Assembly (NCBI GenBank): GCA_973895155.1
Contig: OZ316892.1
Location: 30,324,932-30,388,931 of the forward strand
Length of the DNA: 64,000 nucleotides
Direction: 5' to 3'
DNA from: Marsupella aquatica
Taxonomy: Eukaryota; Plantae; Marchantiophyta
The translations under genes were made by a program, and so were the position numbers. The notes below the pieces were generated by a model. That model was not told the DNA's origin and searched no databases. It was given only the letters and a program-made list of their open reading frames with translations. Of the stretch, positions 1 to 60,307 are shown in pieces. How positions within the stretch are numbered: the stretch's first letter is position 1; the number at the start of each line of letters is the position of its first letter.

Positions 1-2
1 TA

Positions 3-1946: not shown

Positions 1947-2164
1947 GGCAGAATCTAAGTCTTTTTAGTTAAGTTTTAAGAATAGTGCATCTTTCCCTAT
2001 TTTTCAAAATGTGTTATAGAGCTTTAAAAGCTATGAAACTTATTTAGTGTGTAGTCTGTACCTAGGAAAACCTACTGGCAAAATTTCAGAATTTTCCGAG
2101 CCAAGAGTAGAAAGTTAAAAATAGTTGAATTTGGTAAGTCTTTAAGTCTATCGCATTCACCAGA

Positions 2165-2226
2165 TTACGCCTTTATGTTTTTACGCTTTTACGCGATTAC
2201 ATCTTTACGTTTTTACGCTTTTACGG
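2165..2226 (+). repeat. Degenerate short tandem repeat (TTTTACG-like) in the A1 LTR
   Basis: ttacgcc-tttatg-tttttacgc-ttttacgcg-attacatc-tttacg-tttttacgc-tttttacgg. Confidence 0.6.
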
Positions 2227-30828: not shown

Positions 30829-33800
30829 TGTGACGCCGCCGGTACGGCGGTTAATGAGTGATTCGGTCTAACTACGCTCAGCACGCGTTAGGAGTGTCTT
30901 AGGCTGCTATTATTAGCATAACGACAGTATTTAGGTAATCATTATGGGTAGGACATCATTAGGCAATAAGGGGGAATTCAGGTTCGGACTGGCGGCGTGT
31001 CGCTATTCGCACACCCGGGTTACGAGCATGGAGGGGCCCCTCCCTCGGGTCTGTATAACGAACTTAAGGAAGCGGCCACTGACCCGCGCTGACTCAGACC
31101 GGCGGAGTGGCCGGTACACCTCAAGCGTGAGCGGTTCAGCCTATGGGCGTCAAGGAGACGTCGGGGGATCAGCAAGCCCTCAAGGTATAAAAAGGGAGCC
31201 GACCCTTTGGAGTGCACCAGTCCATCAGTCCACGCGCCAGCTTTGACCCCAGCTCTCTCGCTTGCTCTAAGTCGCCACTACTATCTCCTCTGAATGTCGC
31301 ACACGATCCTCTCCAGCTCGGCCATTCGATTCTAGACGCAGTTCCTATCTACCGGAAGGCACTTGGCCGACTCATTGAAACACGCCAACCCGCATCGATA
31401 CGAAATCGAACGCGAGTACGAGAGAGCTATCCGCCTAGCCGGACGTCACCACTATATCCTTAACTTTGACTACCCGTCTCAGAGCGAGCTTTATCGACCA
31501 GCAGAGGTATTTGGGTACTTCTTCAACGGAGACAAATATATCGGTTTCTGGGAAGCATTGCTTCGGCTTCCGGACGAGGTCTTCAATATCCCGGGTACGA
31601 TCGACTTGCAACGACATCACTTTGACCACATCCCTGCTCAGGTTCGGGCTATCATCAACAGCGAGTCCAGCACTACCCGTTCGACAAGGTCGTCTGCACT
31701 CGCTTTGGAGAACTTCTACCAGCACCTACAGAGCTTCATGGGAACTCGGCCATCAACCAACATGACCAACTCACCCGTACCCGTACCCATGCAACCTCAG
31801 GCTCAACCTCAGGCTCAACCTCAGGCTCAACCTCAGGCTCAACTTCAGCTTCAGCCTCAGCCGCAGCCTAGCCAAACCCCACCACCGATCGCCCAGCCGG
31901 CACAAGTATGCTCCGTCATCAACGCTGTGGATCTTAGCGATGACGACGAGGCTACCCCACCCTTGACCAGGCGGCCCAGAGGAACAAGCGCTCAGGGGGC
32001 CGGCACTATATCGTCCCTGCCCCCTGCTCTGACCCCAGGAGCGGCCCCGGCAGACATGGTGACCGTGGCCGCCCCGGGCCCGTTACTAACGGCAGTGGCA
32101 CTACCCAGGCCCGATCGGGAGGATGGGGAAGTGTCACCTTCCCCGAGCCAGTCAAGGGGGAAGAAGAGGAAGGAATCCGCCACTGCATCCGGGTTACCAT
32201 TGGCCACGGTAGCCGTGGCCAAGGTAACAATGCACCGCATGGGGGAAAACGTGCATAAGAATATCCTTCATCCCAAGCATGCGGTGTACCTGAAGACTCA
32301 GGGATTCGAGCACCTCGCCGCTCTGCCCTGGAACACTTGCAGGTACTACGGGGAGGACATGACGGAATTCATCAAGAATTATGATGATACACGTCAGCAA
32401 ACTCGGCTGCGGGGAAGGAATATGTCCCTCACGGAAGAACGGCTCAGGATGATCTTCGGATTACCCAAAGGTGACCATCGAGTCGAATCAGGGCTCCCGG
32501 GGGCAAGGGAGCCAAGTACCAATCTTCAAGTTTTCCCTCAGAGGGAGCAGTGGACAACGGGTTCGTGATGAGGACCTGCCTCATCCCCGAGATAGCTGAG
32601 CGACTGGAGTTCCAGAGGTACGCCCTCCACATGATGGAAACCCGGGGGGAGATCTCCGCCGCCCAAGTTATCCAGGTCGAGAACTATCGACCTAGGAAGT
32701 GGGCGTCGTACTTTGCTAAGAAATTCCATGAAGAGATGGAGCGGCGAAGGAAGACACTGTACATTGGCGGGAAGGCGTACTTTGCTAGCCATATCGAGAT
32801 CATTCTTGAGTGGTACGCTCGGTTTGATCGACGAACCCTTCCCCGTGTCAACGTTACAAAGATGGTCCCGGCTAGGTGGGTTTTCCGGGCCTTGGAGAGA
32901 CAGCCCCAACCCGAGGCCCGAAGTCCGGCGGACACGCCAGCTTCACCCACCCCACCTCCACAAGTAGCTGTGGTCGTAACCGAGGAGGTACCGGAGGGGT
33001 CGGTTGTCGCAACCGTTGATGCGATACAACAGGCCGGGCTAAGTACAGAAGTCGGTACGGCGGAGGTCTTACCCAAGCCCGGGTCTCCCAAAGACCCACC
33101 GGTAGCTATTCCGGAGAACCGGACATCGCTGTAGGAAGACACTCCAGCCCCTTCCAACATTACGTCCCCAGGGCTGGATGTCACTGCCCCGGCCCCCGCA
33201 CGTGTTCACATCTGCCCGTGCCCAACTCCGGACAGACACAACCTGGACCACCCGGAACTCTTCGTACCGGGCACATTTCTGAATGGGCTTCTGGGAGATT
33301 TCTCTCATCAAATTGCCCGGGATACCGGGGAGTTCATGGCCCGGAAGGTAGCCTGTTTCTTCAACCAGGAGTTGGTTGCCGTAGTAAAAGTAGGTCGGGC
33401 CCAGTCGGAGGCCCTTCAGAGGATAGAGCGGTACCGGGAGGAGTCCGTGTACCTAAAGAACAAAGTTGCGGCTCAGGAGGCTGAGCTTCTGCAACTACGA
33501 CCCAAAGTTGCAGCCGCCGATGAGTTGTTAGCAAAGGCGCACGCCCTTACCGCCCTAGCCGAGCAGGCCAAAGCAGGGAACGAGGCCGAGATTTCACGGC
33601 TCCGGTCCCAGATTGACAGTTTGAAGAAATAAATTGTCAGCTGGCAGAAAGACTTGGAGGAGGCCGAAGAACGAGCCCAGCGGGACACTACGGAGATAGC
33701 CACGCTACAAGCCAAAGTGGCGCGGCTCCAAACCAAAGCCGAGAAGCAGGACCAGCTGGCGGGCAAGCTGACGAGCGACGCCCAGCAGTTGGAGGAGGCA

Positions 33801-34854
33801 TGCCAGGAGGCAGCAGAGGAGACGGACGCGGCGAAGCAAGAGAACGAATCTCTGCTGGACCAGGTCCAGCTCCTCAAGGCGGACAACAACAGACTTCGTA
33901 GGCAGCGGGATGGCCGCTCCCACTCGGGCGGCTCTGGCAAGCATGCCAGGCATTAGCGGTGGAGTAGGGATAGAATAGGGTTAGGAATAACTTAGTCAGG
34001 CTCTTGGGACAGGCACCTGCCTTAGGTACAGCAGCGCTGCCATGCTGTCCAGCCTGCGTAGATCACCATCTTCTAATAAGACATAGCCGTTTTCTGGCCT
34101 GACTGTCAGCTTAGTTAGGACCTTAGTCAGCGAATCTTCGGCAAGTGGACACCCCATCCCTCGGCCCTTAGTATTTAGTGCACCCCTCGGTAGAGGCGAG
34201 GGGGGGTTTTTAGTTGCAGAGTTGGGCGTCTGCGGTATGTGCGGGGAGTCCCGACCTCTGGGAATGAAAGAGTACCAAGGGGAGGGGGTAGGACTAAGCT
34301 CGTCGGGCGAGTGCGGAGCCGGGCTCCGTTGTAGTGTGCACCCTCGGCCTTGAACCTGTTCATTCCGGGGCTGTCGGGTCAACTAAGTGTACGCATATGT
34401 TCCCTTTGTAGTAAAATCCTTTCCCATCATTTTCCTTCGTGTAAATCGAGATTGTATGCATGTGCGCGTGTATGTGTGTGGGTTTCTCGTATATGGGTGG
34501 CAGCGCCAGGCCGAACGCACTACCCGAGACGTGCACCGGGTGCAGCCTGCGGGTAAGTGGTTACGAGCACGGGTTGAGGACCTGTATTATCGAATCTGGA
34601 TCGAAGGCGGACAGCACGAAGGCTTAGAAGCCCTTAAGCCGGGGTCGATCCTGCTATTGACTAAGGTAAGTTCCGGCGGCGGAACACAAACCATACCTAG
34701 GAGGTGTCCGTATTTAGCAGTATGCGCACTTAGCGCTAGTTTACGAGAATAAGGTGCATTACGTGCTTCCCTTCCTGCCCGAACCCTCAGATTTACGAGG
34801 GATGTGCCCGTCTAAGCTGAAGTCTGAGTTAAGGCCGCAGCCGATGACGTGACA
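30829..34854 (+). repeat. C1 3' LTR (4026 bp)
   Basis: Uninterrupted direct repeat of the 5' LTR. Confidence 0.95.
31294..33956 (+). pseudogene. C-family LTR-encoded protein (~887 aa reconstructed: QPQA repeat, PMD-like core, C-terminal coiled coil)
   Basis: Pieces 31363-32568, 32550-33134, 33336-33632 and 33654-33956. Lesions differ from those of the 5' LTR copy, so the consensus is one open frame. Confidence 0.85.
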
Positions 34855-36121: not shown

Positions 36122-36125
36122 TTTT

Positions 36126-36143: not shown

Positions 36144-36190
36144 GCATTTCTTAAGCCGTGAGATATGAAGTTAGAAAGGAAGCATAGGTA

Positions 36191-39125: not shown

Positions 39126-40881
39126 GGCATTGTGGCAGAGCCGACGGGATCCACAACGCCATCGATCATCGGCAAGGAATTAAATACCAAGGGATCGGCA
39201 TACAAGCCGATTACAAGGGCAGAACAAATTGAGGCCCTATTAGAAGTCGGGAGAGCACAGCGACCTGACCCTCAAGAGCAAGAGATGGAGGAGATACATA
39301 AACAGAATCCAGAGCCGAGTCAGGCAGCGAAGCCGACAAATAATTCAAAACCGAACAGACCGGCAAGGGGACAATCTGTGGACAAGAAGGGAGAAACCGA
39401 CTCGGCTAGTACAGCCAAGATTCCAGTTTATGGAGGTATGCGACTGGAGAGACTGGAAGCCGAGCTGGACCCGAATTTGAAAAAGCAGATTAATATGATC
39501 CAAGCACGGCAATATCGGAAGCTCGACTTAGGAGAGGGAAGGGAACTGAACTTAGGGAGGGACCTAGCGCCTGAACTCAAGAAAGAGATCAGTGATTTAC
39601 TGATTGAATTTCAGGATGTGTTTGCATGGAGTCACCAAGATCTGAAGGGAGTAGACCCAAAACTAGGAGAACACCAAATCAATCTCATGCTAGGGGCCAA
39701 ATCATTTCGACAACCAATTCAAAGGATGAACCCGAAGTATTCCCTGTTGGTCAAAACGGAAATCGACAAACTAGTGGAAGCCAGATTCATCACTCCAGTC
39801 CTGCATTCAGACTGGGTGTCTCCAATTGTGATTGTTCCCAAGAAAGCTGGACCTGATGGTAAACCAAAGATCCGGGTTTGTCAGGATTACAGGAAGCTGA
39901 ATGAGGCGACGTTAAAAGACCATTTTCCCTTACCCTTTACTGATATTGTACTAGACATGGTAGCCAGTTGTAGTTTGCCATAGAGAACCAAAAATCACAT
40001 TTTAAAGTCTCTAAACTCGGTATTCGTTCCCTTTAAGAACAAGATGGGGTTGGTTTGATGAAATAAACTAAAAATAAAGTTTTAAGCTCTTGTGTCACAC
40101 ATAGTAATCAATCTTGACTACTTTAATCAGGTACTTTGAAGATCGCTCCACAGCGGTGAGTAGTTTTTGATGATAACTCAACATCAGATAACCATCAATT
40201 AAGCAAAAGGTTGCAATTAACAAAACACAAGGAAAAATCTCTCAGAGTATGCTTAAGGGAGTCTGGAATAGACCAAGGTTACTCCTTAGACATAAGTAAT
40301 AATGGAATAACTTTAAGGGAATCCAAATCCACACGGCTTTTCAGATCTAAACTGCATACTAGAGTATCCTTTTAAAATGCCGGCAACATGTCTTGACCTT
40401 TCTTCCTAAGTGATACTTAGTCAAGATCTAAAAGGATAAATACTTCAGCATTTAGATGGTACTAAGCAACATGAAGGTGAAAACATCATTTCCAATGCAA
40501 CTTAAACTCAATGAGTTAACTCTAAGAACTTGTGAGATTACAATGTGTCACCAAAGCGGAATCTGACATTATAATTCACGAGATTCATAACTGAGGTTTT
40601 ACTTCAAGTATTTGGGTTCCAAAATACAAGAAGGAGGTAAGTCTCTCCAAATGTTAAACCTGATCTCGAACTCATAGATTCATGATCAACTAGTTTAACA
40701 CAAGGGAGAGGCAAAACTGCAAAACTTAACCATCTCTCTACACTAGGGGAAGAGGTATAAATAGTGATGAACTACAGAATAAGAGGTCACAGGGTCGAAG
40801 AGACATGCCTCTTCATAACCCTCAAAAAGTCAAAACGACGATTCAATAAGTGGAAAGCCGGAAAAAAAATGGCTAAGTATG

Positions 40882-40946
40882 AACTCTTAAACTCTTAAAA
40901 ACTTAAACTCTTAAAAACGTAAAAACTTAAACTCTTAAACTCTTAA
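40882..40946 (+). repeat. AAACTCTT-like tandem repeat in the A2 LTR
   Basis: aactcttaaactcttaaaacttaaactcttaaaaacgtaaaaacttaaactcttaaactcttaa. Confidence 0.65.
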
Positions 40947-41151
40947 TTTCAGTATACTAAAAATTGAGTAGATTCAACTATTTTTAACTTTCTACTCCTG
41001 GTTAGGAAAACTCTGAAATTTTTCCAGCAGGGTTTCCTAGGTACAGACTACAGCCTAAAGAAGTATGACAGCTTCTAAAGCTCTAGAACACATTTAGAAA
41101 AATTGGTAAAAGTACTATACTTTTCAATACTAGCTAAAAAGATAGTCTCCT

Positions 41152-43554
41152 TCAAGCTTGTTGTCGAATATCATCGGGTTCGAGCAGCTCCACGTAGGTG
41201 ACAGTCCGATTCTGTGTTACCTCCATCAGCTCAGTCTGACGTGGTGATCCTCGAGAGTAGGGTAGGCACCTTAGTTGTCTCTCAGGATACATCAAAGGCA
41301 TTCGCTTCATCAAATAACAGGAATCTATACGAAGAGCTTCTCTGTATATCCCTAGTACATCATAGTTGTTGCAGGTGGCAGCATATACTTGGGGATAGTG
41401 ATGCAGAAACTCATCACTATTCATCATCCTGGAATAGAAGGGTCGAAGTCTCCACCTGACATCTCTGAAATATCGATTGAAATGAGCTAGAGTCTGAGAA
41501 GTGACATTATTCCAGATCCTCTGTTTCTCAGCCAATGTACTGGTTGAAACAAGGGTAACCTTGGGTTCTCGTGGTATGTAATCGTGCTGTGGAGCAGTAG
41601 ACTTCTTGCTCTGCATCAGGAAGGAAATCACAAAATCTAGGGCATAGGCGGCAAAGTTTCCAAAGTATGCCAGAGCTAGGTCTGGATCCTCTACCTCTAC
41701 ATCACCTTGGAGTAGCATCATAGCAAGAATAGGCCGAAAGTAAATTGAGTCAGTCCAGAACTCATCAAATTGTGCCATTTCCACTCTAGAAGTTCCAAGA
41801 CACCTAAGATCAAAAATGTAGCTTGCCTCAGTCTTCTTTAGATAGTAGTATCTCCAGAACTCTCCAACCGGTGGTCTATTGGCCTGCATTACTTTGCAAG
41901 TGGTGACATACCTGTGTACTTCTGACTCAGGACGTCTAGGGTACCTGCTTGCGATAGTAGCATTCCTGGGGGTTTGGGTAGACGAGGTGATCACTGCTAC
42001 TAGATTTGGATTTGATTTTAGAGCTACATCAATATTCTCAAATCCTTGCCTTGGGGATGACCAAAGAGAATTTTCATAAGACCTAATAGAGTCATCATCT
42101 GAGGGCGGATCAGAGTCTTCGGGAAGATCCCTTCGAACATAAGGATGCTCATACTGTGTCTGATGATAGGACGGTCCTTCGGTGGGTTCATAGTTAGAGT
42201 CAGGGCTGTAAGGGGGAAAACTTCGACTAGGAGAAGGGGTAGCAGTGGGACATCGCTGCACCAGGTTGCTAACTACAGTGACTATCTGCCGAGGGTTACA
42301 CTGTAGTATCTCCAGTAGATCATCCACAATAGCTGCACAGCTAATATTGTCTGTTACTGGAACAAGGTCACCACCTGCTTGAAAGGAGGTCTGTTGGGTA
42401 ACAGGGGTGAGAGTCACATATTCCACTGGTGTTGTCTCTCCTGGAGGAGAGGTCATCCTGATAGGGCTTAACTGATCAGGGAATGGTGACTTCAAACTGA
42501 CAGCTTCCATTCTTAAATCATTGACAGCATCGAAAAGACCATCATCACTGCAACTAAGAAGAGATGTCAACTTATCGACGAGTTGTTGATTCGCTTCTGC
42601 CTTTGGAGGTGTGGATGAGTTGGTCCTTAGATTGATAGTTGCAAGAACGAGTTCAGCAACGTCGGCTGGTTGCTCAGGGAAATCTCTGTCTTCGCCAGCT
42701 CCAGATTCTCTTGTATAAACTCTTGGTGAATACACCATGTTAGCCAGGGGGTGTCGAACCAGCTCTAAGTTATGAGCAGGTGTATCTTCAAATTCCATCT
42801 CAGCATCCACATTCTGATCATGAGAATCCAGGGGAATAGCATCCACTGGTTCTTCCATACTCAGGTCTTCTTCAATGCCTAACTCAATCAAGAGCAGCCC
42901 TCTCTCCGTTCTCTCCTCTGGATATAAACATTCATAAGCATGATAGAGTTGAGACAAATAAACCTGCAGATGAGTGGGTCTACCTGCCTTCATGGTTCTC
43001 ACCTGATCCTTCATCACATTGAAAATTAACAGGGCCCAATTAACCTGGACGGCTCCACTGTGTGCGGCTACAATTGTATTCACCAAAGCCACTGGACAGA
43101 GGGTTGGCTTCTTCGGGTGTAAAATGGGTACTAGAAATTCCAGAAGCACTCTCAAATCTGGATAAGTACACTGTGTCAAATTCCAGCCATTGGTGAGATT
43201 GCGAATCCCAGAGAAGTAGGGTGTAGACAAATCTTTCTTCTTTGAATATAATCCTTCTCCTTCTGAAGGGCAGCGGAAGGCATAAGCAATTTGTTCTACA
43301 GTCCATAAGCTGGGTCGAGCTCTAATAGTTTGTTGACATTCAGGAGCAAGCATTGATCCCTTTACAAAATCCTGCAAATATGTGTCGAGCTCTACTTTCC
43401 AAGGGACGGCAAGTAGATGCTCCAAACCTAGCTGTTGTAAGGAAGTCCGTAAATTTGCATAGCTATCGGGCGCTTGTGGAATTCGGGCGACTATGCTCTT
43501 AGGAATTGCCAGAGTGTCAACTCGGTACTGTTCATCAATACCGAGGTTCGCCAT
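41152..43554 (-). CDS. Intact 800-aa LTR-encoded accessory protein (PMD-like N-terminal domain, disordered linker, conserved C-terminal domain)
   Basis: ATG-to-stop ORF with no lesion. Homologous to 3-1946 and to the D ORF (LEFLVPILHPKKP...VNWA vs FRFIVPILTPDKP...VNWA). Confidence 0.85.
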   Translation of the reverse strand: MANLGIDEQYRVDTLAIPKSIVARIPQAPDSYANLRTSLQQLGLEHLLAVPWKVELDTYLQDFVKGSMLAPECQQTIRARPSLWTVEQIAYAFRCPSEGEGLYSKKKDLSTPYFSGIRNLTNGWNLTQCTYPDLRVLLEFLVPILHPKKPTLCPVALVNTIVAAHSGAVQVNWALLIFNVMKDQVRTMKAGRPTHLQVYLSQLYHAYECLYPEERTERGLLLIELGIEEDLSMEEPVDAIPLDSHDQNVDAEMEFEDTPAHNLELVRHPLANMVYSPRVYTRESGAGEDRDFPEQPADVAELVLATINLRTNSSTPPKAEANQQLVDKLTSLLSCSDDGLFDAVNDLRMEAVSLKSPFPDQLSPIRMTSPPGETTPVEYVTLTPVTQQTSFQAGGDLVPVTDNISCAAIVDDLLEILQCNPRQIVTVVSNLVQRCPTATPSPSRSFPPYSPDSNYEPTEGPSYHQTQYEHPYVRRDLPEDSDPPSDDDSIRSYENSLWSSPRQGFENIDVALKSNPNLVAVITSSTQTPRNATIASRYPRRPESEVHRYVTTCKVMQANRPPVGEFWRYYYLKKTEASYIFDLRCLGTSRVEMAQFDEFWTDSIYFRPILAMMLLQGDVEVEDPDLALAYFGNFAAYALDFVISFLMQSKKSTAPQHDYIPREPKVTLVSTSTLAEKQRIWNNVTSQTLAHFNRYFRDVRWRLRPFYSRMMNSDEFLHHYPQVYAATCNNYDVLGIYREALRIDSCYLMKRMPLMYPERQLRCLPYSRGSPRQTELMEVTQNRTVTYVELLEPDDIRQQA

Positions 43555-43739
43555 AGCTCTCCTCCGTTATGTTGAGTGCACTAAGGAGTGGGGGAGCTGG
43601 CAGAAACAATGGAGATGGCAGTAAATAAGTCAGGAGTGAGCGCTCGAGGTCTAATTCCCCTTCCCTTCAATTCGCGCTCGCCATCCCGTTGCTAAGTCCC
43701 GTTGAAAGTAGCCGTAAGACGTCGCGATCATCGGTTGCC

Positions 43740-44012
43740 AACTCGTAAGGCACAACTCGTAATGCCCTAACTAGTAAGTCGTAACTACTATACTCGTAAC
43801 TCGTATACTGTCGCAAACTAGTAAACTCGCTTACCCGTAACTAGTAGACTCGTGAAGTGGAGCTTACCCGTAACTAGTAAACTCGTGAAGTGGAGCTTAC
43901 CCGTAACTAGTAAACTCGTAAAGTAAGTTTACTTCGCCATCAGTTTACTCGTAAAAGAGTAACCCGTAGACTGGTATACTCGTAATCTGAGTATACTCTT
44001 AAACTCGTAAAC
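43740..44012 (+). repeat. Degenerate ACTCGTAA/ACTAGTAA array with ~32-bp tandem units, upstream of the A2 ORF
   Basis: Unit gcttacccgtaactagtaaactcgtgaagtgga occurs about three times at 43829-43925, plus many aactcgta copies. Confidence 0.75.
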
Positions 44013-45204
44013 TAAAGTAACTTCCCGATATTAACAGTAAGTGTAGTTTAAACAACGTAAAAAAATTTAAAAATTTCAATTTCTTCATACTTCTGGAATT
44101 ACTCACTACTTACACCAGTCATGAACTATATTCATTCATGGATGGGTACTCTGGCTATAACCAAATCAGGATTAGGCAGGAAGACCAAATCAAGACGGCC
44201 TTCATCACGGAATGGGGGATCTATGTCTTCAATCGTATGCCGTTTGGACTCTGCAACGCACCAGCTATGTTCCAACGATTGATGGTGAACATTTTCCATG
44301 ATTACTTGAGAAAGTTCATGGAAATCTTCATTGATGACTTTGCAGTATTCGGGAAGGCATCGAAACATGCTAAATACCTCAGGAAAACCTTCATGAGATG
44401 CAGAGAGGTAGGTCTCAAGTTACAACCAGATAAGTGTTTCTTTGCAGTAACCGAGGGGGTGCTCCTAGGTCACAAGGTATTCAAGGAAGGGCATTGAGAT
44501 TGACAAGGGTAAGCTAGCAGTATGGCTAGATATCATGCAACCTAAGAACATAAAGGATGTAAGATCCTTCTTGGGATGCATTGGTTACTATCGCCGGTTC
44601 ATCAAGGATTTTGCCAAGCTAGCTTTACCATTAACCAACATGCTCAAGGCAGGAGCAGACTTCGAACCCACACCCGAACGAGTAACAGCGGTGGTGGAAT
44701 TGAAGCAGATGTTAGTAGAGGCTCCAGTCATGATAGCACCGGATTGGAACAAAGATTTTCATGTCTTTGTAGATGTCTCAGGCTTCTGTATCGGCTCAGT
44801 ACTAAGTCAGTTGGATGAGAAAGGAAGGGACCATCCCATATACTTCGCAAGCCGTCAGCTTGCCGATGCCGAACGGAACTACTCCACCACAGAGAGAGAA
44901 GCATTAGGAGTCATTTATTTCTGTAAAAAGTTTAGGCATTATTTACTAGGGTACAAGGTAATCTTTCATACCGATCATGAAAGTTTGAAGTACCTAGTCA
45001 ATAAGCCGGACCTTACAGGCAGAGTAGCAAGATGGATTTTGCTATTACAGGAGTTTGACTATGAGCTGAGGATCAAGCCAGGAAAGCTGCACGCCAATGC
45101 CGACTTCTTTTCAAGAATCATAGGTGAACCTGCCACGGATTGCATCGATGATCGATTCCCCGACGAGGAACTATTTGTTGTGGAAATAGCTGATACATGG
45201 TACC

Positions 45205-46404
45205 TGTGGTAAGTGATAATAATTCAAATGTATGTAATTCGTCCTTAATTACCAAGGTTCGGTCCCGTAAGGAATAAGTGAAATGAATTATGCAGGTGTT
45301 TAAACGCTTTTAAACCTCGAAGCGATTTCTTTACTATCTTTTTGATACAAATGATTCTACAACGACATTTCAATGGATTTCAATCTATCATCAAATTTAT
45401 AAATGATTACTTCTTATCAATAGGTAATCTTAATTTTCATTCCTCATCAACTTCCATATACTCAACAGAGATCGGTTTTACGTTGAATGATTCACTACAA
45501 TTCTCTTTTCCCTAGAATCCAAAGCTTTTCTTTATAAATCCATGACTTTATGACATTCATCCATGAACTTGTGATAAATGTTATGATTCAAGTGCAAATG
45601 TGTGGTACAATTCCTCTGGTTCAATCTTCCCTCCTATGCCCAAAACTGGCTTGAGAGAAAGACCCAAAACTGGTCAAAGATTAATTTCCAAGAAAAGACA
45701 ATGAATCATGATCTTGGGAGTCCACTTGTAAGGCTCCCTCAAAAGGTTTAAGATGCCAAAAGGTTTTAGAAGCCTAAAAACCTTTTCTCATCTAAACTTA
45801 GGGTCCTAAAAGGTAAAATAAGTCTAAGACTCTCTATATCTAATTCCTAAAGGTACACTAAACTATGGCCCTCTATATCCTACTCTATCTAACTCATTGG
45901 AAAGCTCAAGAGGTCAGAAAAGAGATAGAAAACGATTTAAGTAACATATGCCAAAACACCTTGGAGAATCGGTTTGGGTTATTCTGAAGCTGGTCTTTTG
46001 GAACCAAACTGAAATTCTCCTTATAGCCCTTGGAAAGAGCTTTCCAACGCACCAAATATCTCCTCAAACCGACATCGGACCGATCCGCAATCGTCCGTCA
46101 AAGTTGCTGCCAAAAGTCTAAACCGATTTTCCAACTTCCAAAGCGATTCTTCAGCCGGTCTTTCTGCAAAGCGATTCTTCTGCTTCCTCCCGGAGCGATT
46201 TGTTTCGGATTTCTTTGAAAGCGATTGTTTGTCTGAAACGATTCTTCCTTCCAAACTCAAACTTCTTAGCTTTCTTCCATAACATTCCTTTGAGGCTTAG
46301 AATGGATTAAGGGGTGACAGATAAACCTAAATAAGCTTCAAGTAAGGTTAAAATGTTTTTAAATGGATCACATTCACTCCGTAGTTCCTTTTTACCTTTC
46401 CACA
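45205..46404 (-). repeat. D 3' LTR (true end either 45205 or 45343)
   Basis: Follows PPT2. The segment 45205-45343 has no counterpart in the 5' LTR. Confidence 0.8.
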
Positions 46405-46417
46405 TAACCCCCTCCTC
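46405..46417 (-). other. D PPT2 (LTR-adjacent)
   Basis: GAGGAGGGGGTTA before TGTGG. Confidence 0.85.
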
Positions 46418-47206
46418 AAATGTGAAGCGACCTCGCGAACACTTGAGTCGTGGAAAATTCTCTTCTTCAGATGTACCAGGTCATGATCTCCTCTAGCACC
46501 ATCATGTTGTAGGGTGGCGTCTTCTTCTTGTTGGAGGATTGGCCAAAGCATAAATGTCCAGTACCAAATGCTCAATGTTATTGATGGTCCCATTGAGAGA
46601 AAAATGGATAATATGCAGGGTAACATCTTCGCACCAAGTAATGGCAATCCAATTCAAGCCATTCCTTCCTCTCAAACTCAAGGTCTGAGCTTGAAGAAAA
46701 GCTCTTCTCAAAGCAGCAATCCTTATAGAACCAGGAGTTCTATGGCCAGACATGGAGATTTAATGGAGGAGAGGTCAAAAGTTAGGGAGAATTCACTGAG
46801 GAAAAATCAAAAGATGGGTAAGCTAAGGAAAAACAAAGAGAGTTTTAAAGTTAAAAATGAAACGGTTTGAGGTATTTTGACTCAAAGGATAGAAACGGTT
46901 CTGATTTTAATAACTTTTGGAGATTTTTGGGAAATATGGAAAGGAAAAGGTAGTTTCCTGATTAAAAGCGATTGAGGAACAATAGAGATAGAGTTTTGCA
47001 AAGGATCTAAAGTAGGAAGAATAAAACATAAGGGGGAAATTCGCCAACAGAAAACATCTCAATTCAGAGTCATCAAGTAAGCACAGCTGAAAAAATGTCA
47101 CAGTTTATAAAGCTCTCCTTCGAATCTCTGTAGTACATCAGGCTCTTTAAACAATGCCCTGAAATGCATAAATCTTCTCACAAAATGGCACCATGTACTT
47201 CAGGCG

Positions 47207-49677
47207 TCAACTATCGCTTGGTGGCATCTTTCGCTTGAGGACAGCGGGGGGAAATCTCCGGGTCTTCTTAAGACTTCTGGCCAAAGAGTGGGATTTGAAT
47301 TGCTTCCGCTTCTCAAGACCGGATCGGCGGACAGGGGGAAAAGAGTCCTCAATGGTCTCCATCTGAATGATCTCGGTACTTGGCTCCTCATCCTCTTCTA
47401 AAACATCCTCTATTGGAATGTCATTAACTGGAGAAGAATTGCAAGGCTCAACAGAAGGAATCGGTTCAGATAAGTCCTGGTCTTCTTCAAACTGAGGCTA
47501 AGTAAATTCAGGAGTAACCAATGGAGGATTGAACAACTGATTGTCTTCCACCACCTTAGCAACAAAAACATATTCACGGTCAATCATCGGGGTAGGGCAG
47601 GAGTACCGGCGAATTTCCTCTGACAACTCAAACTTTTCATCAGTGAGAAGCAGTATCTGAACTCGGGCGGATGCAAGAATCGCCCTCTCCAATTTTTTGA
47701 CACTGAATCCGGAATCACCTCCAATTTGCTGTATCCGGTCAAAGACTGTAGGGCTTTCCTGTTCTCGAAAAAGCCTTCCAAAAGTACCTGGCTCTCCAAA
47801 GTGACAATCGCCCTCCGCTTCTGGATTAGGGAACCAAAATTACATGAACCACTGGAAACGTCTGGTATCAAGTTGACAGTAGAGCCAGAGTGAATCTCAA
47901 TGTCACCAGCGACCAAGTTTGAAAGATGCTCATCTAACTTGGCTAGATAGCCACATTGAAACTTAGTAGCCCACCCTGCAAGGTTTCCAAGGAGTCTGGT
48001 AGCTAGAGAAAGATCATCAACCTGCAGGTCTCCAAAAAGTAAGGCAAACGCTAGCAATTCTCGGGCATCCGTAGTGGATTTACTCCAGACACTATAGATT
48101 AGGGTCAATGATACCTTTCTGGTCTTTTCAAAGTCAGGTAAACAATAATAATAACAGACCATGAACTTTTGAAAATGGTAGTAGCAAAGGAAATTGACCG
48201 AGGGTGTAATGAAATGAATTAACCCGTGGGAAAATCGCTCTAAGTCTTGTCTCCCTTCACACGATAATACAGTCAAATCATTCCGGATCGGTAAAATGAC
48301 TGCTTCTGTCTGAGGTCTCTCTTCAAGAATCATTTTGGGTGGAGGAATGGCAGGAAGACGGTGGTCAACAAAATCTTGCAATTCGCCTACCACCTTGAAT
48401 AGTACTTCATACTTCCGGTCCAGAAGTCCTTTCTGATTAGTAATGGCTGTGGCAATCCGGCTCAAACTCTTCTCATCAGTCTGCCATCCTTCAAAGGTCA
48501 ATGCCGCAAGTTGGAGTCGTTCTACTGTCGATAGAGCGATTGTTTGAGCTGCTTCTCCGATCTGTACAACAGAATGTTGAATTGCTGGCAAAACAGTTCC
48601 TTGGACCAATTCTTGAATTTGCTTCTCCAAGCGCTTCGTCTCTGTATCATGGTTCTGCTTCTCTTTATTAGCAGCAGCAACTTGAACTAGCAATTTGTCA
48701 ATGTGATCAAGAAGGTCAGTCGAAGGGCAAGAAAAACGATTTGACAAGTCCTCCACAAGTTTAGCATTTGCGGAATTTGCCTTACAAAACTCCTTTGTAA
48801 CTGCACGAAATTTTGCTTCAATCAGCGAAATGTCTTCTTTGCCTTCCAGATTCACAAACGGCACTGCTCCCTCTCTCTTCTTGATCTTTGATGCTCTAGG
48901 AGGCGATTTGACTGTCTCTTGTCGTTTCCGCAACACTCGGCCGCCGATCACTTCAGATTTGACGATCGGTTCAGCACAATCTTCCTCTTCGCTGTCAGTG
49001 GCATCCTCAGCTGAAGGCGGATCTTCCATGAGTGACCGATTGGCCAAGGCCTCTTCATATTCTTGGAGTTCCATAGATGACAGTTTCCCCTCCGATCGAT
49101 ACAGATGATACAACATTGGTGAAATAAAGAAATCCATCCCATCCTTCACCTTTTTGCATCGTAGCTGAAACGAGTCCCAAAGAAGACTTGCCCAGTTGAC
49201 CGGCTTCCCCTTCTCATATGCAGTGATAATCATCGCTGCCAGCTTTCCAGTAATCCTTTTTGGCTTATCAGGAGTAAGGATGGGCACGATGAAGCGGAAA
49301 ATCGCCCTAAGCACAGGATCACAAGCAGAATCGGGCGTGAAACCTTCCTTTGTAAACGCACTCAAAAATCGATCCTTGCAAATGTCATGGAAGAGACGGG
49401 AAGATGTAAAATCCTCAGGGGTGAGACCTAAAGATGAAATGACATAGCAGTCCGCTACTGCCTTCAGACTGAATGCTGTATAATCCGACCTGGGGCTCAA
49501 CCCTTTTGAGGTCCTATTCCGCAGCCGAATTTCATCCACCAAACTTGCGCTACTAATCACCCAAAGGAAATCCGCAAGCGATTCTATTCCCACTTTCCGA
49601 TAGTTGTCTACATTCGCCACGATCTCTGAATCAGGTGGCATCAAAACCATCTTTGCCTTTCCCATCGCGCTCCCCAA
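47207..49677 (-). pseudogene. D internal extra ORF, homolog of the family A LTR protein (697-aa ORF plus a frameshifted C-terminus)
   Basis: Shares both the N-terminal block and the C-terminal block (LAFALLFGDLQVDDLSLATRLLGNLAGWA vs LAMMLLQGDVEVEDPDLALAYFGNFAAYA) with A. The alternative frame EEIRRYSC resembles EALRIDSC and continues, through one TAG, to 47207. Confidence 0.8.
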
Positions 49678-50124
49678 TCTTGGATCAAGAAAATTCTCAT
49701 CTATTGTTAAAAGCCTCCCTTCGATGGATCAGATTGCTTCCACTCCCAAGAAGAAAATGTTTGCTCACAGTACTCTGCCATTGCCTTCAAGAATCGCTTG
49801 ACGTTCCTTCGATAGCAATGATAAATTCTGGACCTGAATAGTCCCTCCTCTTCTCTTGATTCCCTCAAAGCACCAAGGCTCGTACTTTCTTGGCGTCTCA
49901 GTACTTGATTGCTTCGTTCAACTTCTGGCATATAAATCTCTTAAATTGTTTTACCATTTTTACTAGGGTTTCTTTTCCTCTTTGGTTTGAGCTTTCCATG
50001 TTACTAAACCTAAACATTCCTAGATAGGGGACTTAAAAATTTTCATTTTTTTAATTTTTATTTTAAAAACTATTCTATTCAGTACTTCTACCTTGCTAAT
50101 CCTTATAAGATACAACTTCATATA

Positions 50125-50137
50125 CCACCCCCTCCTC
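50125..50137 (-). other. D PPT1 (immediately after pol)
   Basis: GAGGAGGGGGTGG about 25 nt after the pol stop. The core TGAGGAGGGGGT is identical to PPT2. Confidence 0.75.
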
Positions 50138-50160
50138 ATAATTGGAGTGGCCACGCGACA

Positions 50161-53056
50161 TTAATCTAAACTCTGGGAGGTATATTTTTTGACTCTATGA
50201 CCATTGACTCTAGTGGGTAATAGGTCTCCAGCAGTGGTGGCAAGTTGGAGACTACCATTAGCCCAAACATTTTTAACTAAATAGGGTCCACCCCACCTAG
50301 TGTGGAGTTTCCCTGGAAATTTTAAATAACGGTTGTCATAAAGTAAAACTAAATCTCCAGCTTCAATAGGGGTCGGCTTCAGTTTCTTATCATAATTCAC
50401 TTTCCGATTCTGTTGCTGAGTATGAGTGTGTGAGTGCATAGAGGCGATTTTCCTCTAAATGCTCCAACTCTACCAATCTAAGGAGCTGACTTTCCTCAGG
50501 AGGTAATCTTCTGTCATCTAATACCCGTGCAGTAGGTATACTAAATTCTATAGGAACAATGGAGTCCATACCATAAACCATATAAAAGGGAGTGCGTTTG
50601 GTTGTGATCTTTTGTGCTGTCCTATAAGCCCAAAGTGCAGACGGAAGCTTCATATCCCAATCACTCTTGTGTGCTGAAACGATTTTTGTGAGAATCTTAC
50701 AAATAATGCCATTTGCTCTCTCCGTCAAACCGTTTGCTTTAGGATTATAGGGTGTTGTTTTTCTGTGCTTAATCAGGTAGGTGTTTGTGAGAAGTTCCAT
50801 GGTGCTGTTGAGGAAGTGTGTGCCTCTATCACTGACCAACTCTAAAGGGCAACCATATCTAGTGATAATATTATCAAAAAGAAAAAGTGATGTGACGGCG
50901 GCATCATCTCTTCTCACTGCCTCGGCTTCCACCCATTTAGTGGCGTAATCTGTTGCAACAATGATGTAGCGATTTCTCCTCCTTTGTGTCACTGGTTGGA
51001 TAGGACCCACAAAATCTATCCCCCACTTCTCAAATGGAGCCAAAGGCATGATAGGTATTAAGGGCCATCTCCCACTCAGCAGAGGTTTTCCCATCCTTTG
51101 GCATGGATCACATCCCTTGATAAACTGGAAAACATCCCTATGCATAGAGGGCCACCAGTAGCCCGCATCTCTAATTTTAGCAATTGTAGTCGCAACAGCA
51201 AAATGCCCTCCAGAATTCCCTTCATGTAAAGCACTTATCACCCAGGGGATTTCATGCCGCTCCAAACACCTCTTGAGTTTAAGATCAGGCATGGCTTTGT
51301 GTAACACACCTTGAATGAGAGTATAAGGCCCTGCCTTATACACAAAAACCGCTTGTTGCTCTGCATTCATTGGCTCTGGTGGTCGTCCCGTCAGAAGGTA
51401 AGTCACAATATCAGCATAAAGCGATTGTTCTCCCTCGATGTGAAACAGCTCCTCATCAGGAAAATGATCTGGTACCGCTTCCTTGCCATCTTCTCCCTCC
51501 AACCGAGATAAGTAGTCTGCATTGACGTGACTCTTGCCTGCTCGTACTTCCACTTTGAATTGGAATTCTTGCAAAAGCAGGACCCACCTTGCAATTCGGC
51601 CCGACAGGTCCACCTTGTTGAACAGATATTTCAACAAATGATGGTCCGTATGAAACACAGTGTCATAGCCAAGGAGGTAGTGTCTGAACTTTTTGCAGGC
51701 AAAGACCATGCCTAAGGCCTCTCTCTCCGTGGTGGAGTAATTTCTCTCTGCACTATTCAACTGGCGACTAGCAAAATAAATTGGATGGCTCTTATCATGC
51801 TCATCCTTTTGACTTAGTTCTAAGCCTATACAAAACTTGGAGGTATCTACAAAAACATGAAAAACTTTTTCCCAATCGGGCGGGATAAGGACAGGAGCGA
51901 CTGTTAACTTATATTTGAGGGTAATGAAGGCATTTTCCCTAGCATCACTCCACTCATAAGGAGCATCCTTCTTGAGGAGTTGAGTAAGAGGTGTGGCAAG
52001 GACGGAGTAGCCCTCTATAAACCGACGGTAATAACCCACATACCCTAGGAAACCCCTTAGCTCACGCAAGTTAGTGGGAACTTCTAAGGCAAGGATTACC
52101 GCGACTTTATCATGATCCACAACAATGCCACTCTGGGATATCTTATGCCCAAGCAAAATTCCCTCCTTCATGCCAAAATAGCACTTCTCAGGGTGTAAAC
52201 ATAGCCCTGCCTCCCGACACTTGGCAAATGTTTTCTTCAAATACTCTAAATGGTCTTTCTTCTGCCCATAGACACAAAAATCATCTATAAAAATCTCTAA
52301 AAAATCCCGCAAGTATTCCTGGAAAATAACAGTCATTAGTCTTTGAAAAGTAGCGGGGGCATTGCACAAACCGAAAGGCATTCTAGAAAAAGCATAAGTA
52401 CCCCAATCGGTTGTGAATGTGGTCTTGGACTGATCTGATTTCCTAATAAATACCTGGTTATAACCTGAAAATCCATCTAGGAAACTATACATCTCATGAC
52501 CAGCAACCTGATCTAGGATAGTATCAGTAAAAGGTAAAGGATGGAAATCTTTTCTAGTAGCGGCATTTAATTTTCTATAATCTTGACATACCCTAATCTT
52601 AACCTTTCCATCTGGTCCAGGCTTCTTAGGAACTATCACTATTGGTGAGACCCACTCACTACTTAAGACAGGATAAATGAAACCAGCCTCAAGCAACTTA
52701 TCTAATTCGGTTTTAACCATAAGAGAGTACTTAGGATTCAGTCTATACTGACGTTGCCTAATAGGAATTGCCCCTTCTACCACATCTATCCTATGTTCAC
52801 CTAAGGTAGTGGAAATGCCTTTAAGGTCATGGTGGCTCCATGCAAAAACATCTTTATATTCTTCTAGTAGCTTCTTATATTTTTGCTTAGATATGTCATC
52901 TAACGCTCTTCCTACATTGAAGGTTTTATCGGTTTCTAATTCAATTTTAACATATTGGGTTTTCTTAACCATACCCTCAGTCATACTAGCTGATTCCTCA
53001 AAGTAAGCAGTACTCTTCCCTAGGGCTACCTCCCCTTCCTTAGGTTTCTGTAATTG
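50161..53056 (-). pseudogene. pol: D pol (RT-RNase H-integrase; one frameshift near 50435)
   Basis: ORF 50390-52984 (FIDDF, DTSKFCIG, HHCC, DDE) plus 50161-50439 (GPY). In frame with the gag-pro stop. Confidence 0.92.
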
Positions 53057-53059
53057 CTA
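53051..53059 (-). other. Putative stop-codon readthrough signal TAG-CAA-TTA
   Basis: The single in-frame TAG between protease and RT sits in an exact UAG-CAR-YYA context. Confidence 0.75.
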
Positions 53060-56000
53060 TTCTTCCCAATCCGATTCTTCCATCTCCTCAATCGGTTTCG
53101 GTTCCAGAAGAGGTGAAAGAATCGCTTTAGGTGTAAAAATCGGTTTAGGTGCAAGAATCAAAGTAGGATTGGAAGAGGGAATTTCAGACCCTTCTGGAGA
53201 ATTTGTCTCGTGGACTTGCCTGACCTCTTCATCTTCACCGGTTGAGTAGGTGTAGACCTCCAAGTATCGAACATCCTCCTCAAACTTAAAATCCTCCTCT
53301 TGGAGCTTCATCATCTCATCTACCCATCTTGATTCCACTGTCGAGGTACTATCATCCGAAGTGTATCCCGGATCGAACGACATGGTCTCACCGAGATGCT
53401 GCACTTTATCCCAAGACAAGATAACTTTGGGGTGCCCAAACGAAAAGGTTTTGTTTGCCCAATTCACCTTGACTTTGGCCTTATAGAGCCATGGTCTACC
53501 TAAAAGGATAGGGAAAGTAGATGGTGTAGGGGGGTCAATTATCAAAAAATTTAAGACAAAAGGTAACCCTCCTATGATAACCTCTATGTTTCCTAATTTT
53601 CCTAAAGGAAAGACCCTAGATTGGTCTGCCATTCTAAGAACACGAGGAGTTGCTTCAAACTTACTAAATCCTAATGATCTTGCTGTTTGTGCTATCATTA
53701 TATTGACTCCAGACCCACCATCAATAGGTACACTCCTAATAAGGCATCCATCAATTTGTAATTCTACATCCGGGGCTCCAAAATCCTCTATCTCAGTAAA
53801 ATTCACAGACACCGGGGGCATCTTATACTTCCTACGCCTACTACTTAAAAGAGGTTTAAGTTGCTTCCTATACAATGCATTATCCCTCAACAACTCTCCA
53901 AAGGTAACATTAGCTGGAGTACTAGCCACATCTTTAACTATATTATATCCTAACTTCTCATCTACTCTAACACCCTCAAATTTTGATCCATCTTGAAAGG
54001 TGACTTGTTTAAACGGCACTTGCTCCTTAGAAGTCTGATTCGTGACTTCTTTCTCAATGTACTCTTGAGCTTCTGAAGATATGTCACGGATAAAGTACTT
54101 AGGGTCATACCTGTCATATGCTGGGTCTAATTCCTTGGGAAGTCCCTCCTTCTGCTTACCTCCAAGCGGTTGTTCATTCGCTCTAGCCTTCTTTGCATGC
54201 TTCTGAGGAAACGCAATTGGTCCGTTGGAAGAATCGCTTTTTGGCAAAGCGATTGGTGCGGCTGACGAATTGCTTTGGGTATTCTTGAGCAGCTCTTTCC
54301 TTTTGGCACTTCGGGTTGTGGTCCGATATACTGGAATTGATTCCTCCGGGTTCACCTTCTCCTCAGTTATGAGGTGTGTGTCTTCCAGAAATATCATCCG
54401 GACTTCTGCCGTTTCTCCCTTCTCCGGATCCTTCACATACTTCACCATCAACTTTGGCTGCACCGGTTTGGGGCATTCGATTGGGAGATGGCCCTCGTCT
54501 CCACAGTTCCCACATATAGGGGTATATGCATAAGGAGCCTTTGGGTAAGGGCACTCAGGTGCATAATGTCCCGCTACTCCACAATTGTAGCAGGTCCCAG
54601 GGATTCTCTGTGTACGAGGTGGATAGCCTCCGGGTGGTTCCATTGGAGGTTTGACAGGAGGTCTCATTGTCATGGGCCTAGGCATCATACTTCCTCCCAT
54701 ACCCCGACCCATTGGTGGTCTTGGTGGTCCCATTGGTCTTCTCATAGGCGGGGGATTATTGACCATGTACCAGTCAATCTCGTCTTGTTCTTCTGCATAG
54801 TAGGCTGGTTCGTCCCATTCTTCCGCAATGTATTGAGCTTGCCTCCCCATGTGTGGACACTCCACTGGATAGTGGCCTCTTTCTCCACATCTAGCGCACC
54901 AAACATTTGGTCGGTTTATCGGAGCAGGCCTCCTCTTTGGGCGATTGTCTGCCAAATTAACTGAAAGTTTATCAAATTTTCCACTCAACTCATCAATCGT
55001 TTTTTCACACCTGTAAGGGACTTGAGCGCATTATTAGTTGGCTGATATACTTTTCCCCTGTCTCTACGATGGCGGGTGGACTCATCATCAGATGAGGATG
55101 ATGAAGAGGAGGAAGAGGAGGAAGAGGAAGAACTAGACTCTGACGATGAGGAGGAGGTACTAGAAGAACTTATTTCTTTCTTTTTACCTCCTGACCTTTT
55201 CTTCCTCCGCTTTCTTTTCTCTCTCTCCTTTTCTTTCTTCTCCTCTTTTTTCAATTCTTTTCTCTGAGACATCTCAGTATCTTCAAACTCTTGTGCCGCT
55301 TCAATCGCTTCTCCTAAATTGGCAGGGTGTGATCTCCTAACGTATCTATTCATCTCTCTAGGCAATCCTCCTGTGAAATACTCGGTTTGCATCTCATCAC
55401 TAGGCAGAGGTCTAATCTTAAGAATTAATTTCCTAACATTCTGAGAATAAGTTCTCAATGTGTCTTTTTTTCTCATGCGAATTCTCCTAAGTCTAGCTAA
55501 CACTCTAGAAGTGGCTCCTGCTTCTCTTAATTCTTTCCTAAAAGCATTTTGTAAATCAGGCGAGATACCCTGAATAGCTGGGGTAAGGGATAGAGTATAC
55601 CATTTATGTGCTTCATTTTTCATGAGTCCTTCAAAAATCCGCAAGAGATCTGGATCCGCATTTTCCTTGTTGGTTTTGGCTGTTGACAAAAATTCTCCCA
55701 GCCAATCATCTGGATCTTGGCCTCTTCCCTTGAAAACCGTATATTTCAGCCTTGTGGAGGATGTCATGATGGAAGGAGGACGGGCACTAGAGGACCCAGG
55801 AGATAATGAAACAAACGATTTCTTTACTACCTTAATTGGCGCAAGTAGAGATCCTTTAGAGATTAAGTTTCCTATCAATTGATTAGCCCTTTCTCCCTCA
55901 AGTGCACCTTGAGTCACCAAATCTTCTAAATGTTGAACCTTTTCGGCAACAGTAGGTGATTCTGGTACCATAGATTGTTCCCTCTCTTCAAAATCACTAA

Positions 56001-56897: not shown

Positions 56898-56915
56898 TCC
56901 CCGGCAGCGGCGCCA
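56898..56915 (-). other. Primer binding site of D (tRNA-Asp-like, Athila type)
   Basis: TGGCGCCGCTGCCGGGGA. Confidence 0.85.
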
Positions 56916-56919
56916 AAAA

Positions 56920-57980
56920 GATACAAACGATTCTACAACGACATTTCAATGGATTTCAATCTATCATCAAATTTATAAATGATTACTTCTTATCAATAGG
57001 TAATCTTAATTTTCATTCCTCATCAACTTCCATATACTCAACAGAGATCGGTTTTACGTTGAATGATTCACTACAATTCTCTTTTCCCTAGAATCCAAAG
57101 CTTTTCTTTATAAATCCATGACTTTATGACATTCATCCATGAACTTGTGATAAATGTTATGATTCAAGTGCAAATGTGTGGTACAATCCCTCTGGTTCAA
57201 TCTTCCCTCCTATGCCCAAAACTGGCTTGAGAGAAAGACCCAAAACTGGTCAAAGATTAATTTCCAAGAAAAGACAATGAATCATGATCTTGGGAGTCCA
57301 CTTGTAAGGCTCCCTCAAAAGGTTTAAGATGCCAAAAGGTTTTAGAAGCCTAAAAACCTTTTCTCATCTAAACTTAGGGTCCTAAAAGGTAAAATAAGTC
57401 TAAGACTCTCTATATCTAATTCCTAAAGGTACACTAAACTATGGCCCTCTATATCCTACTCTATCTAACTCATTGGAAAGCTCAAGAGGTCAGAAAAGAG
57501 ATAGAAAACGATTTAAGTAACATATGCCAAAACACCTTGGAGAATCGGTTTGGGTTATTCTGAAGTTTGTCTTTTGGAACCAAACTGAAATTCTCCTTAT
57601 AGCCCTTGGAAAGAGCTTTCCAACGCACCAAATATCTCCTCAAACCGACATCGGACCGATCCGCAATCGTCCGTCAAAGTTGCTGCCAAAAGTCTAAACC
57701 GATTTTCCAACTTCCAAAGCGATTCTTCAGCCGGTCTTTCTGCAAAGCGATTCTTCTGCTTCCTCTTGGAGCGATTTGTTTCGGATTTCTTTGAAAGCGA
57801 TTGTTTGTCTGAAACGATTCTTCCTTCCAAACTCAAACTTCTTAGCTTTCTTCCATAACATTCCTTTGAGGCTTAGAATGGATTAAGGGGTGACAGATAA
57901 ACCTAAATAAGCTTCAAGTAAGGTTAAAATGTTTTTAAATGGATCACATTCACTCCGTAGTTCCTTTTTACCTTCCCACA
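56920..57980 (-). repeat. D 5' LTR (~1061 bp)
   Basis: Near-identical direct repeat of 45344-46404. Confidence 0.92.
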
Positions 57981-60240: not shown

Positions 60241-60307
60241 CACGAAAAAGACCGCAAAGACCGCGCATTGCGATCGCTGGGCTGCACGAAAATGTATATA
60301 GAAGATA

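Follow-up and report, generated by a model that had tools for sequence, protein, structure and literature searches.

Athila-like retrotransposons such as Athila4, Calypso, FIDEL and Diaspora combine the Gypsy domain order with an extra open reading frame (ORF) that follows pol in the sense orientation. In angiosperm Athila this ORF lies between pol and the long terminal repeat (LTR) (PMC7264820; PMC6317226 with its supplement 3, in which the 47% column is ambiguous), and how LTRs reach several kb and what the Athila-like extra ORFs do are presented as open questions in passages of the same two sources. Section 17 of PMC2829016 describes one extra polypurine tract (PPT) in the linker between pol and LTR; central or internal PPTs in HIV-1, Ty1 and EVADE, and multiple PPTs in Sirevirus, are described in portions of PMC7197481, PMC2829016 and PMC13332604. 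Here we analyse a retrotransposon, element D, in a 64,000-nt stretch of the liverwort Marsupella aquatica (the window; assembly GCA_973895155.1, contig OZ316892.1, positions 30,324,932 to 30,388,931, forward strand), together with its neighbours A, B and C and its relatives in metagenomes. D carries an accessory ORF between two PPTs, and related families carry a homologous ORF inside their LTRs. The two-PPT arrangement is real and conserved, and together with the gene-in-LTR layout it makes up a clade-wide polymorphism.

On the minus strand D reads 5' LTR, tRNA-Asp primer-binding site (PBS), gag, pol, PPT1, accessory ORF, PPT2 and 3' LTR, as follows (all coordinates are those of the window; TA/TG denotes the attachment (att) site):

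56920..57980, minus strand: D 5' LTR, 1061 nt, without the final ~138 nt present in the 3' copy
56898..56915, minus strand: D PBS, tRNA-Asp type, near-identical to the tRNA-Asp PBS listed in Table 1 of PMC2844528
54985..56247, minus strand: D gag
50161..55030, minus strand: D pol, with protease, reverse transcriptase, RNase H and integrase (PR-RT-RH-IN) and no additional RNase H (aRH); in-frame stop near 53057, frameshift near 50420, true stop TAA at 50161-50163
50123..50160, minus strand: PPT1 cassette, core 50127-50138, non-canonical, no TA/TG at the usual spacing
47207..49665, minus strand: D accessory ORF, with an N-domain common to A, B and C and a C-domain common to A
46405..46442, minus strand: PPT2 canonical cassette (hairpin motif, core 46407-46418, TA/TG), adjoining the LTR
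45205..46404, minus strand: D 3' LTR, of which 45344-46404 matches the 5' LTR

Judged by these element features, D appears to be an Athila-like gypsy element with a central-type PPT. As in Athila, the domain order is that of Gypsy and an extra ORF follows pol in sense; no aRH is present (no RNase_H or RVT_3 match in the pol of B, C or D), and the D-E-D-D residues of the native RNase H are intact. The D PBS matches the tRNA-Asp PBS of FIDEL (REXdb gives tRNA-Asp for 72% and tRNA-Asn for 12% of Athila), and 5-bp target-site duplications (TSDs), as recorded for Athila in REXdb, flank A, B and C, with none at the D copy. An extra PPT in the linker between pol and LTR is also Athila-like, section 17 of PMC2829016 mentioning one. 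The post-pol ORF lies outside the LTR in D and in the related locus L005, as in Athila, and within the LTR instead in B, C and the loci L004 and L008. Unlike Athila, then, sister families hold the ORF inside the LTR; unlike the Athila env-like ORF, the accessory ORF has no transmembrane segment; and the pol is only ~42% identical to its angiosperm matches. The extra PPT of Athila4 follows the env-like gene, whereas PPT1 here precedes the ORF. The PBS of B and C is presumably of the tRNA-Asn type. Among named relatives, D pol comes closest to sequences from Riccia sorocarpa; those from Calypogeia fissa and Marchantia rank lower, a pattern in line with a liverwort host.

Other assignments were considered and set aside. 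Membership in Tat (TatI-III, Ogre, Retand) is opposed by the absent aRH; the aRH-less Tat lineages Z1 and Z2, which a portion of PMC10508981 places in Marchantia, leave some probability of Tat kinship. The 4-bp TSD, tRNA-Trp/Ala PBS and missing extra ORF of Phygy/Selgy were not what we found. An env-like identity of the accessory ORF is ruled against by the absence of a transmembrane segment, the maximum 19-residue Kyte-Doolittle mean being 0.6-1.5 across 9 ORF segments.

A first-pass annotation of the window had proposed that two PPTs with the same core surround the D ORF, and this was borne out. For Athila, where the annotation took such a flanking pair as known, section 17 of PMC2829016 supports no more than one extra PPT in the linker. 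In the whole window TGAGGAGGGGGT, 12 nt long, has exactly two copies, each on the minus strand, at 50127-50138 (PPT1, 23 nt past the true pol stop) and at 46407-46418 (PPT2); both sites had been chosen rightly, with positions off by 1-2 nt. Allowing up to two mismatches, TGAGGAGGGGGT gave 15 matches, a number reached by 1 of 100 shuffles. The longest run shared with the PPT2 flank is 12 nt for PPT1 and at most 8 nt for 178 control 101-nt windows of the 3' internal region. Within each element the two tracts share their core, 12 nt in D and GGGGAGCTA in L005, which suggests that PPT1 may act as a second, central-type primer; PPT2, nearer the end and provided with an att site, would prevail. A same-core, att-less upstream PPT recalls the internal PPTs of HIV-1, Ty1, EVADE and Sirevirus, from which the liverwort tract differs in that relatives begin their LTR there, the cited portions of those sources not reporting such tracts as the LTR border of successful families. 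The PPT hairpins are recurrent and individually weak (z +0.7 to -2.1). The D LTRs are short, as had been stated (1061 nt, 99.3% identity), and a hypothetical LTR beginning at PPT1 would measure 4.78-4.92 kb, close, as the annotation had supposed, to the 4.15 kb of A, 4.68 kb of B and 4.03 kb of C.

The window as a whole is a nest of Ty3/gypsy LTR retrotransposons, in which LTRs, PBS, PPT and the gag-PR-RT-RH-IN order are all present. The elements that carry the accessory ORF inside the LTR are these:

39969..44114, minus strand: A solo LTR, 4146 nt, TG...CA ends, TSD ACTGG, no pol
41152-43554: A accessory ORF, intact, inside the A solo LTR
1..3140, plus strand: A1, second A-family LTR, clipped at the window edge, with ORF 3-1946
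8320..12997, minus strand: B 3' LTR, 4678 nt, with the frameshifted accessory ORF 9241-12936 inside
12998..13035, minus strand: B canonical PPT cassette, within the last pol codons
19222..23899, minus strand: B 5' LTR, 99.8% identical to the B 3' LTR; TSD ACAAC
30791..30828, plus strand: C canonical PPT cassette, at the pol end
30829..34854, plus strand: C 3' LTR, 4026 nt, with accessory ORF pieces inside; TSD GGGTC
6162-8319 and 23900-25743: C 5' LTR, interrupted by the B insertion

B and C are complete elements (the C LTRs measure ~4.0 kb), and their PPT does occupy the PPT1 position: B pol reads through the PPT into the LTR, and the C PPT stands at the pol end. Both layouts are thus present side by side, as had been claimed; since the pols of B, C and D are ~57% identical to one another, these are distant families and not the states before and after a change. 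The expected homology between the D and A ORFs was found in two blocks (E 1e-10 and 5e-8; by profile, E 1e-30 and 1e-11). The B and C ORFs match in the N-domain only (E ~1e-6, with a profile from 135 homologous stretches) and are 15-28% identical to the other accessory ORFs.

Both layouts recur among relatives. A metagenome scan confirmed 297 stretches, of which the best 79 loci were kept; 15 ingroup loci show the pol end. Nine of them (L001, L002, L004, L006-L009, L011 and L027, the last approximately a copy of L009) have the canonical cassette GTTCGCG.GG..C.C(T)TCACA...GGGG at the pol end, followed by TA/TG or AA/TG, with the N-domain downstream in 8 of the 9. Five others (L003, L005, L013, L041 and L077) have a different hairpin and G-run without TA/TG, like D PPT1, and the ORF is visible in three; PPT1 is therefore kept among D relatives, a point that had been named beforehand as a test. 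L042, the fifteenth locus, is left unclassified. The circular contig L005 repeats the D layout, with pol, a TG-less PPT1, a 745-aa ORF, a canonical PPT2, an LTR of ~1 kb and a tRNA-Asp PBS; its pol equals sequence P0003 at 916 of 917 positions and is 72% identical to that of D. In L004 and L008 the ORF comes after the pol-end PPT, and the bases just past that PPT form an inverted repeat with the LTR end before the PBS (9/12 and 11/12), from which we infer that the ORF lies inside the LTR. L006, L007 and L009 show a complete ORF and 218-1106 nt beyond it, where a second cassette is absent. In L012 a PPT1 lacking TG is accompanied by an ORF of weak homology and, 22 nt before the contig end, by a hairpin, GGGG and TA/TG. 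The ATG lies at a similar distance from the candidate PPT whichever the layout, 435-770 nt in most cases, with 115 in B and 175-235 in L041; in A, B and L005 the ORF stops 0.9-1.2 kb before the LTR ends. The search of viral_contigs returned no matches, and the cassette pattern had 0 matches in genome_contigs.

The low identity and modest profile values of the B and C ORFs would fit a history in which LTRs captured unrelated ORFs independently and PPT1 is a purine run that arose by chance. One N-domain, however, is common to all the ORFs, so that they are homologous and the unrelated captures that the annotation had named as a contrary outcome were not obtained; the shared 12-mer beats all 178 control windows; and a hairpin with a G-run follows the pol stop in all five D-clade loci and also in L010, L012, L033, L080 and L081. 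Independent capture is largely refuted by these results, and we consider it very improbable.

To relate the two layouts, we lean slightly towards a shift of plus-strand priming and of the integrase site to the PPT1 position, which would have placed the gene inside 4-5 kb LTRs. In the starting state the accessory gene would lie between a conserved upstream PPT1 and an LTR-defining PPT2. PPT2 would then be lost, and a TA/TG att site with a canonical cassette, perhaps copied from PPT2 via template switching, would be gained at PPT1. The stretch from PPT1 to the LTR end would turn into U3, the gene would thereby be duplicated, and each solo LTR would keep one gene copy. Gain of the att site may be a short step, since past the G-run of PPT1 D has TATG after five bases and L003 has TGTG. 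Such a PPT switch into the LTR had been the central proposal of the first-pass annotation: the layouts, the homology, the spacing and the conservation of PPT1 agree with it, and neither a scar nor an alignment was found, nor a switched copy among the matches listed. Genes in or overlapping U3 are familiar from retroviruses (MMTV sag, HIV nef and foamy bel/bet). Like these, an LTR-borne gene would be duplicated in each round of reverse transcription; unlike them, it is here a whole gene of 600-1200 codons in plant LTRs of 4-4.7 kb, and sister lineages keep it outside. Neither a plant retrotransposon gene inside an LTR nor a PPT switch was found in the titles and abstract openings of the literature searched, a scope outside which subscription papers fall.

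The direction of change was assessed with trees of 33, 26 and 18 rows (pol analyses) and 24 rows (ORF), all subsets of the loci; the integrase tree omits four short rows, and the pol tree omits seven loci that were short or near-duplicates. The pol tree was rooted on unlabelled angiosperm rows, and its 26-row version is a quick tree. D pol groups with L003, L005, L013 and L041 (support 99.2/100). The L012 clade falls outside the ingroup (ingroup support 100/100 with 33 rows and 100 in the quick tree with 26 rows), and uniting the D and L012 groups in one clade is rejected by the approximately unbiased test (p-AU 2e-41). By parsimony, ~2 moves into the LTR stand against ~3 moves out. In the ORF tree the A ORF joins those of L003, L005 and L041 (94/95), and a single clade of all LTR-borne ORFs is rejected (p-AU 0.0014). 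Since the L012 outgroup is also two-PPT-like and the LTR-borne ORFs do not form one clade, the ORF probably entered the LTR more than once, at least twice by this count. Mapping ORF position on the tree, which had been suggested as a check, gives modest support to the direction from internal to LTR. No layout is assigned to the Riccia, Calypogeia, P0004, P0005 and P0010 branches.

The same trees bear on an explanation in which modules were exchanged with no switch of primer: the ORF was deleted between the PPT cores and then recaptured into U3, or ORF and LTR were swapped together by template switching. The ORF and pol trees are only partly congruent, the D ORF standing apart from the L005, L003 and L041 ORFs while D pol groups with their pols, and exchange would account for a PPT2-like cassette at the pol end. 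Recombination among Athila families (PMC2410132) and loss of the ORF region in Diaspora (PMC1142308) are documented in passages of those sources. However, the D ORF is a long branch, so its position is unsure; the ORFs of L004-L009 form one clade (99/98) that agrees with the pol clade; and the similar distances in the two layouts are more simply explained by a module that stayed where it was. We judge module exchange unlikely.

Several points weigh against the shift of the priming site that we favour. Support for a single long-LTR clade varies between analyses (96.7/92, 72 and 41), and a grouping of the D clade with the L004 group is unrejected (p 0.39). Element A has no pol, so the position of its ORF could reflect recombination. 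Among relatives both PPTs are fully visible only in L005; the PPT2 of L012 scores only 5 bits, and the homology of its ORF is weak. No PPT2 scar was detected in the A, A1, B and C LTRs, in the L008 5' LTR or downstream in L006, L007 and L009. The alignment of D post-PPT1 DNA with the A LTR start that the annotation had suggested as a check was not obtained (15 of 200 shuffles were as good), and in 9 comparisons of D or L005 post-PPT1 or LTR DNA with A, including its 3' part, none rose above shuffles. Nor were D copies starting at ~50120, another of its suggested checks, seen among the matches listed for contigs of four sequencing runs over 44800-58400, which show no loose contig end near 50120. 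Upstream-primed strands are normally outcompeted and have no att site, according to section 17 of PMC2829016, so a forward switch needs at least two changes, loss of PPT2 and gain of the att site. In HIV-1, a passage of PMC13332604 reports, priming from the central PPT alone, with no 3' PPT, leads to 1-LTR circles. Finally, a cassette profile built without D and L005 scores the D PPT2 at 42 bits and the L005 PPT2 at 24, and reports neither PPT1; the primer site of the long LTRs thus looks like a PPT2 at the PPT1 position.

A PPT2-like and not PPT1-like cassette at the pol end of long-LTR elements is what the opposite course predicts. There the gene-in-LTR state would be ancestral, a second copy of the cassette and LTR start would arise by duplication past the ORF, the PPT2 so created would win at once, the LTR would shrink and PPT1 would lose its att site. 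This would be one dominant step, since a downstream PPT wins kinetically (PMC2829016, in its section 17); it would account for a canonical cassette at the B and C pol end and at D PPT2, for the degenerate PPT1 and for the absence of scars, and the ingroup backbone is unresolved in the pol trees. It would also require separate shortenings in the L012 and D clades and one change in A (~3 changes against 2), and the extra ORF is internal in angiosperm Athila in the portions cited of PMC6317226 and PMC7264820. We find the opposite course improbable, and shifted priming from PPT1 remains our preferred reading.

Whatever the route, the LTR-borne ORFs are under purifying selection, with ratios of nonsynonymous to synonymous substitution (dN/dS) of 0.14 in A and 0.26-0.45 in B, against 1.1 for the two C LTRs compared with each other as a neutral, post-insertion control. 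None of the tested window accessory ORFs or of 40 homologs reached the Pfam cut-off; one homolog matched PF20167 at E 0.014, below the cut-off. The nearest ESM Atlas clusters, PF20167 (Transposase_32) and PF03078 (ATHILA ORF-1), at 0.91 and 0.90, serve as a lead only, and the Atlas search with the C-domain gave scores <0.9. AlphaFold models of the A and L009 N-domains, which are 29% identical, had predicted local distance difference test (pLDDT) values of 93 and 94. The top structural match of the A model was VANC21 bound to DNA (9lnk_A; Z 6.5, root-mean-square deviation (rmsd) 4.4, 207 residues aligned, next match 4.3), and for the L009 model the same chain (Z 7.7, rmsd 4.2, 199 aligned) was the sole one of 48,161 at Z>=2. 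The predicted N-domain fold aligns, over 199-207 residues, with VANC21 of the Mutator-like VANDAL21 (PDB 9lnk); it differs in belonging to a retrotransposon and not a DNA transposon, with 9-14% identity, rmsd >4 and no sequence-profile match.

The targets of VANC proteins, as described in part of PMC5735166, are short motifs that differ by family and lie in non-coding repeats; among the liverwort elements, most families show repeated CG words of their own. Of 13 non-coding sets, 9 have a CG-containing top 6-mer that clearly exceeds the shuffled maximum, the words being ACGAGT in A2, AGCGAT in D, AGCGCT in L005 and ATCCGG/TCCGGA in L004, L007, L008 and L009. On these models and motifs, the accessory protein is predicted to be an anti-silencing factor of the VANC type, one that binds DNA in a sequence-specific way at the CG motifs of its own family within the element's non-coding DNA; we give this prediction about an even chance. 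To be set against it, both VANC21 Z values are middling (<8) and the alignment rows of the two models overlap; neither Foldseek, run on PDB and BFVD, nor a sequence profile of PDB recovers the match; and motif enrichment fails in B, C and L012 and is marginal in A1. Repeated LTR motifs occur without VANC too.

Beyond a single shift of priming, the clade might toggle its LTR border repeatedly between PPTs, each solo LTR combining a VANC-like gene, target motifs and LTR signals and demethylating the family in trans. We put this forward tentatively, as possible and rather doubtful; if true, toggling gives a concrete route to LTRs of 4-5 kb and a function for the long-puzzling extra ORF of Athila. 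Because related families keep one gene either within the LTR or outside it, the evolution of LTR borders becomes testable, and the VANC21 fold match points to a specific role, open to test, for an 'env-like' ORF that is not a membrane protein. Solo LTRs of this kind would be labelled host genes by annotation tools built around short, non-coding LTRs.

The D copy itself is degraded. Its accessory ORF is broken by a frameshift near 47790 and a stop at 47498-47500, with the true end at ~47207 (judged against sequence P0001), and pol is broken too. There is no TSD, and the right flank does not continue the B-like pol of the left side, so the copy is likely a recombinant, with a suggestion of recombination between two D copies. 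The 3' LTR seems ~138 nt longer than its partner (45205-45343), its CCACA end at 45205 being a 9/12 inverted repeat of the start, and variant contigs from each of the four sequencing runs cover it; the 5' LTR is without that U5 end and passes directly into the PBS spacer (56916-56920). Summed read-contig depth over 44800-58400 in the four runs, which is not a copy number, was lower in the ORF than in the LTRs. An ATG-initiated ORF of 83 codons lies between the main D ORF and PPT2 (46500-46753, minus strand). Two PPT-like purine words, ATATGAGG(A/G)GG, occur in the outer flank on the minus strand (57985-58000 and 58115-58140), and one of them directly precedes the 5' LTR.

Elsewhere in the window, the plus strand has another element of the B family, B' (3141-6161, 34860-39968 and 44115-45204), into which C, D and the A solo LTR are nested; the pol of B' breaks off at 45204, with no continuation on the other side of D. 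The pol end of B is dual-coded, PPT cassette and LTR start (12986-13035) being translated as the last pol codons. At the A start, contig coverage stops 2 nt inside the LTR, short of the place where an upstream PPT would be positioned, and two X1 contigs terminate exactly at the first base of the A LTR. A dense array of TACGAGT/TACGGGT words lies at 43720-44020, at the A LTR start upstream of the ORF. Among relatives, L015, L017, L019 and L025, of a Marchantia-like clade, show after pol a TA/TG behind a mostly non-purine tract (GATGGTCGCCAAT) with no G-run. L080 and L081 are retrotransposon ends of the L012 type on short contigs of a cyanobacterial metagenome-assembled genome, likely plant contamination of the bin. 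Beyond D, a hairpin followed by CTAG at ~58210-58250 (minus strand) resembles a Helitron 3' end; degenerate tandem repeats lie at 58300-60600, and a 284-codon ORF with no Pfam match occupies 62134-62988 on the minus strand.

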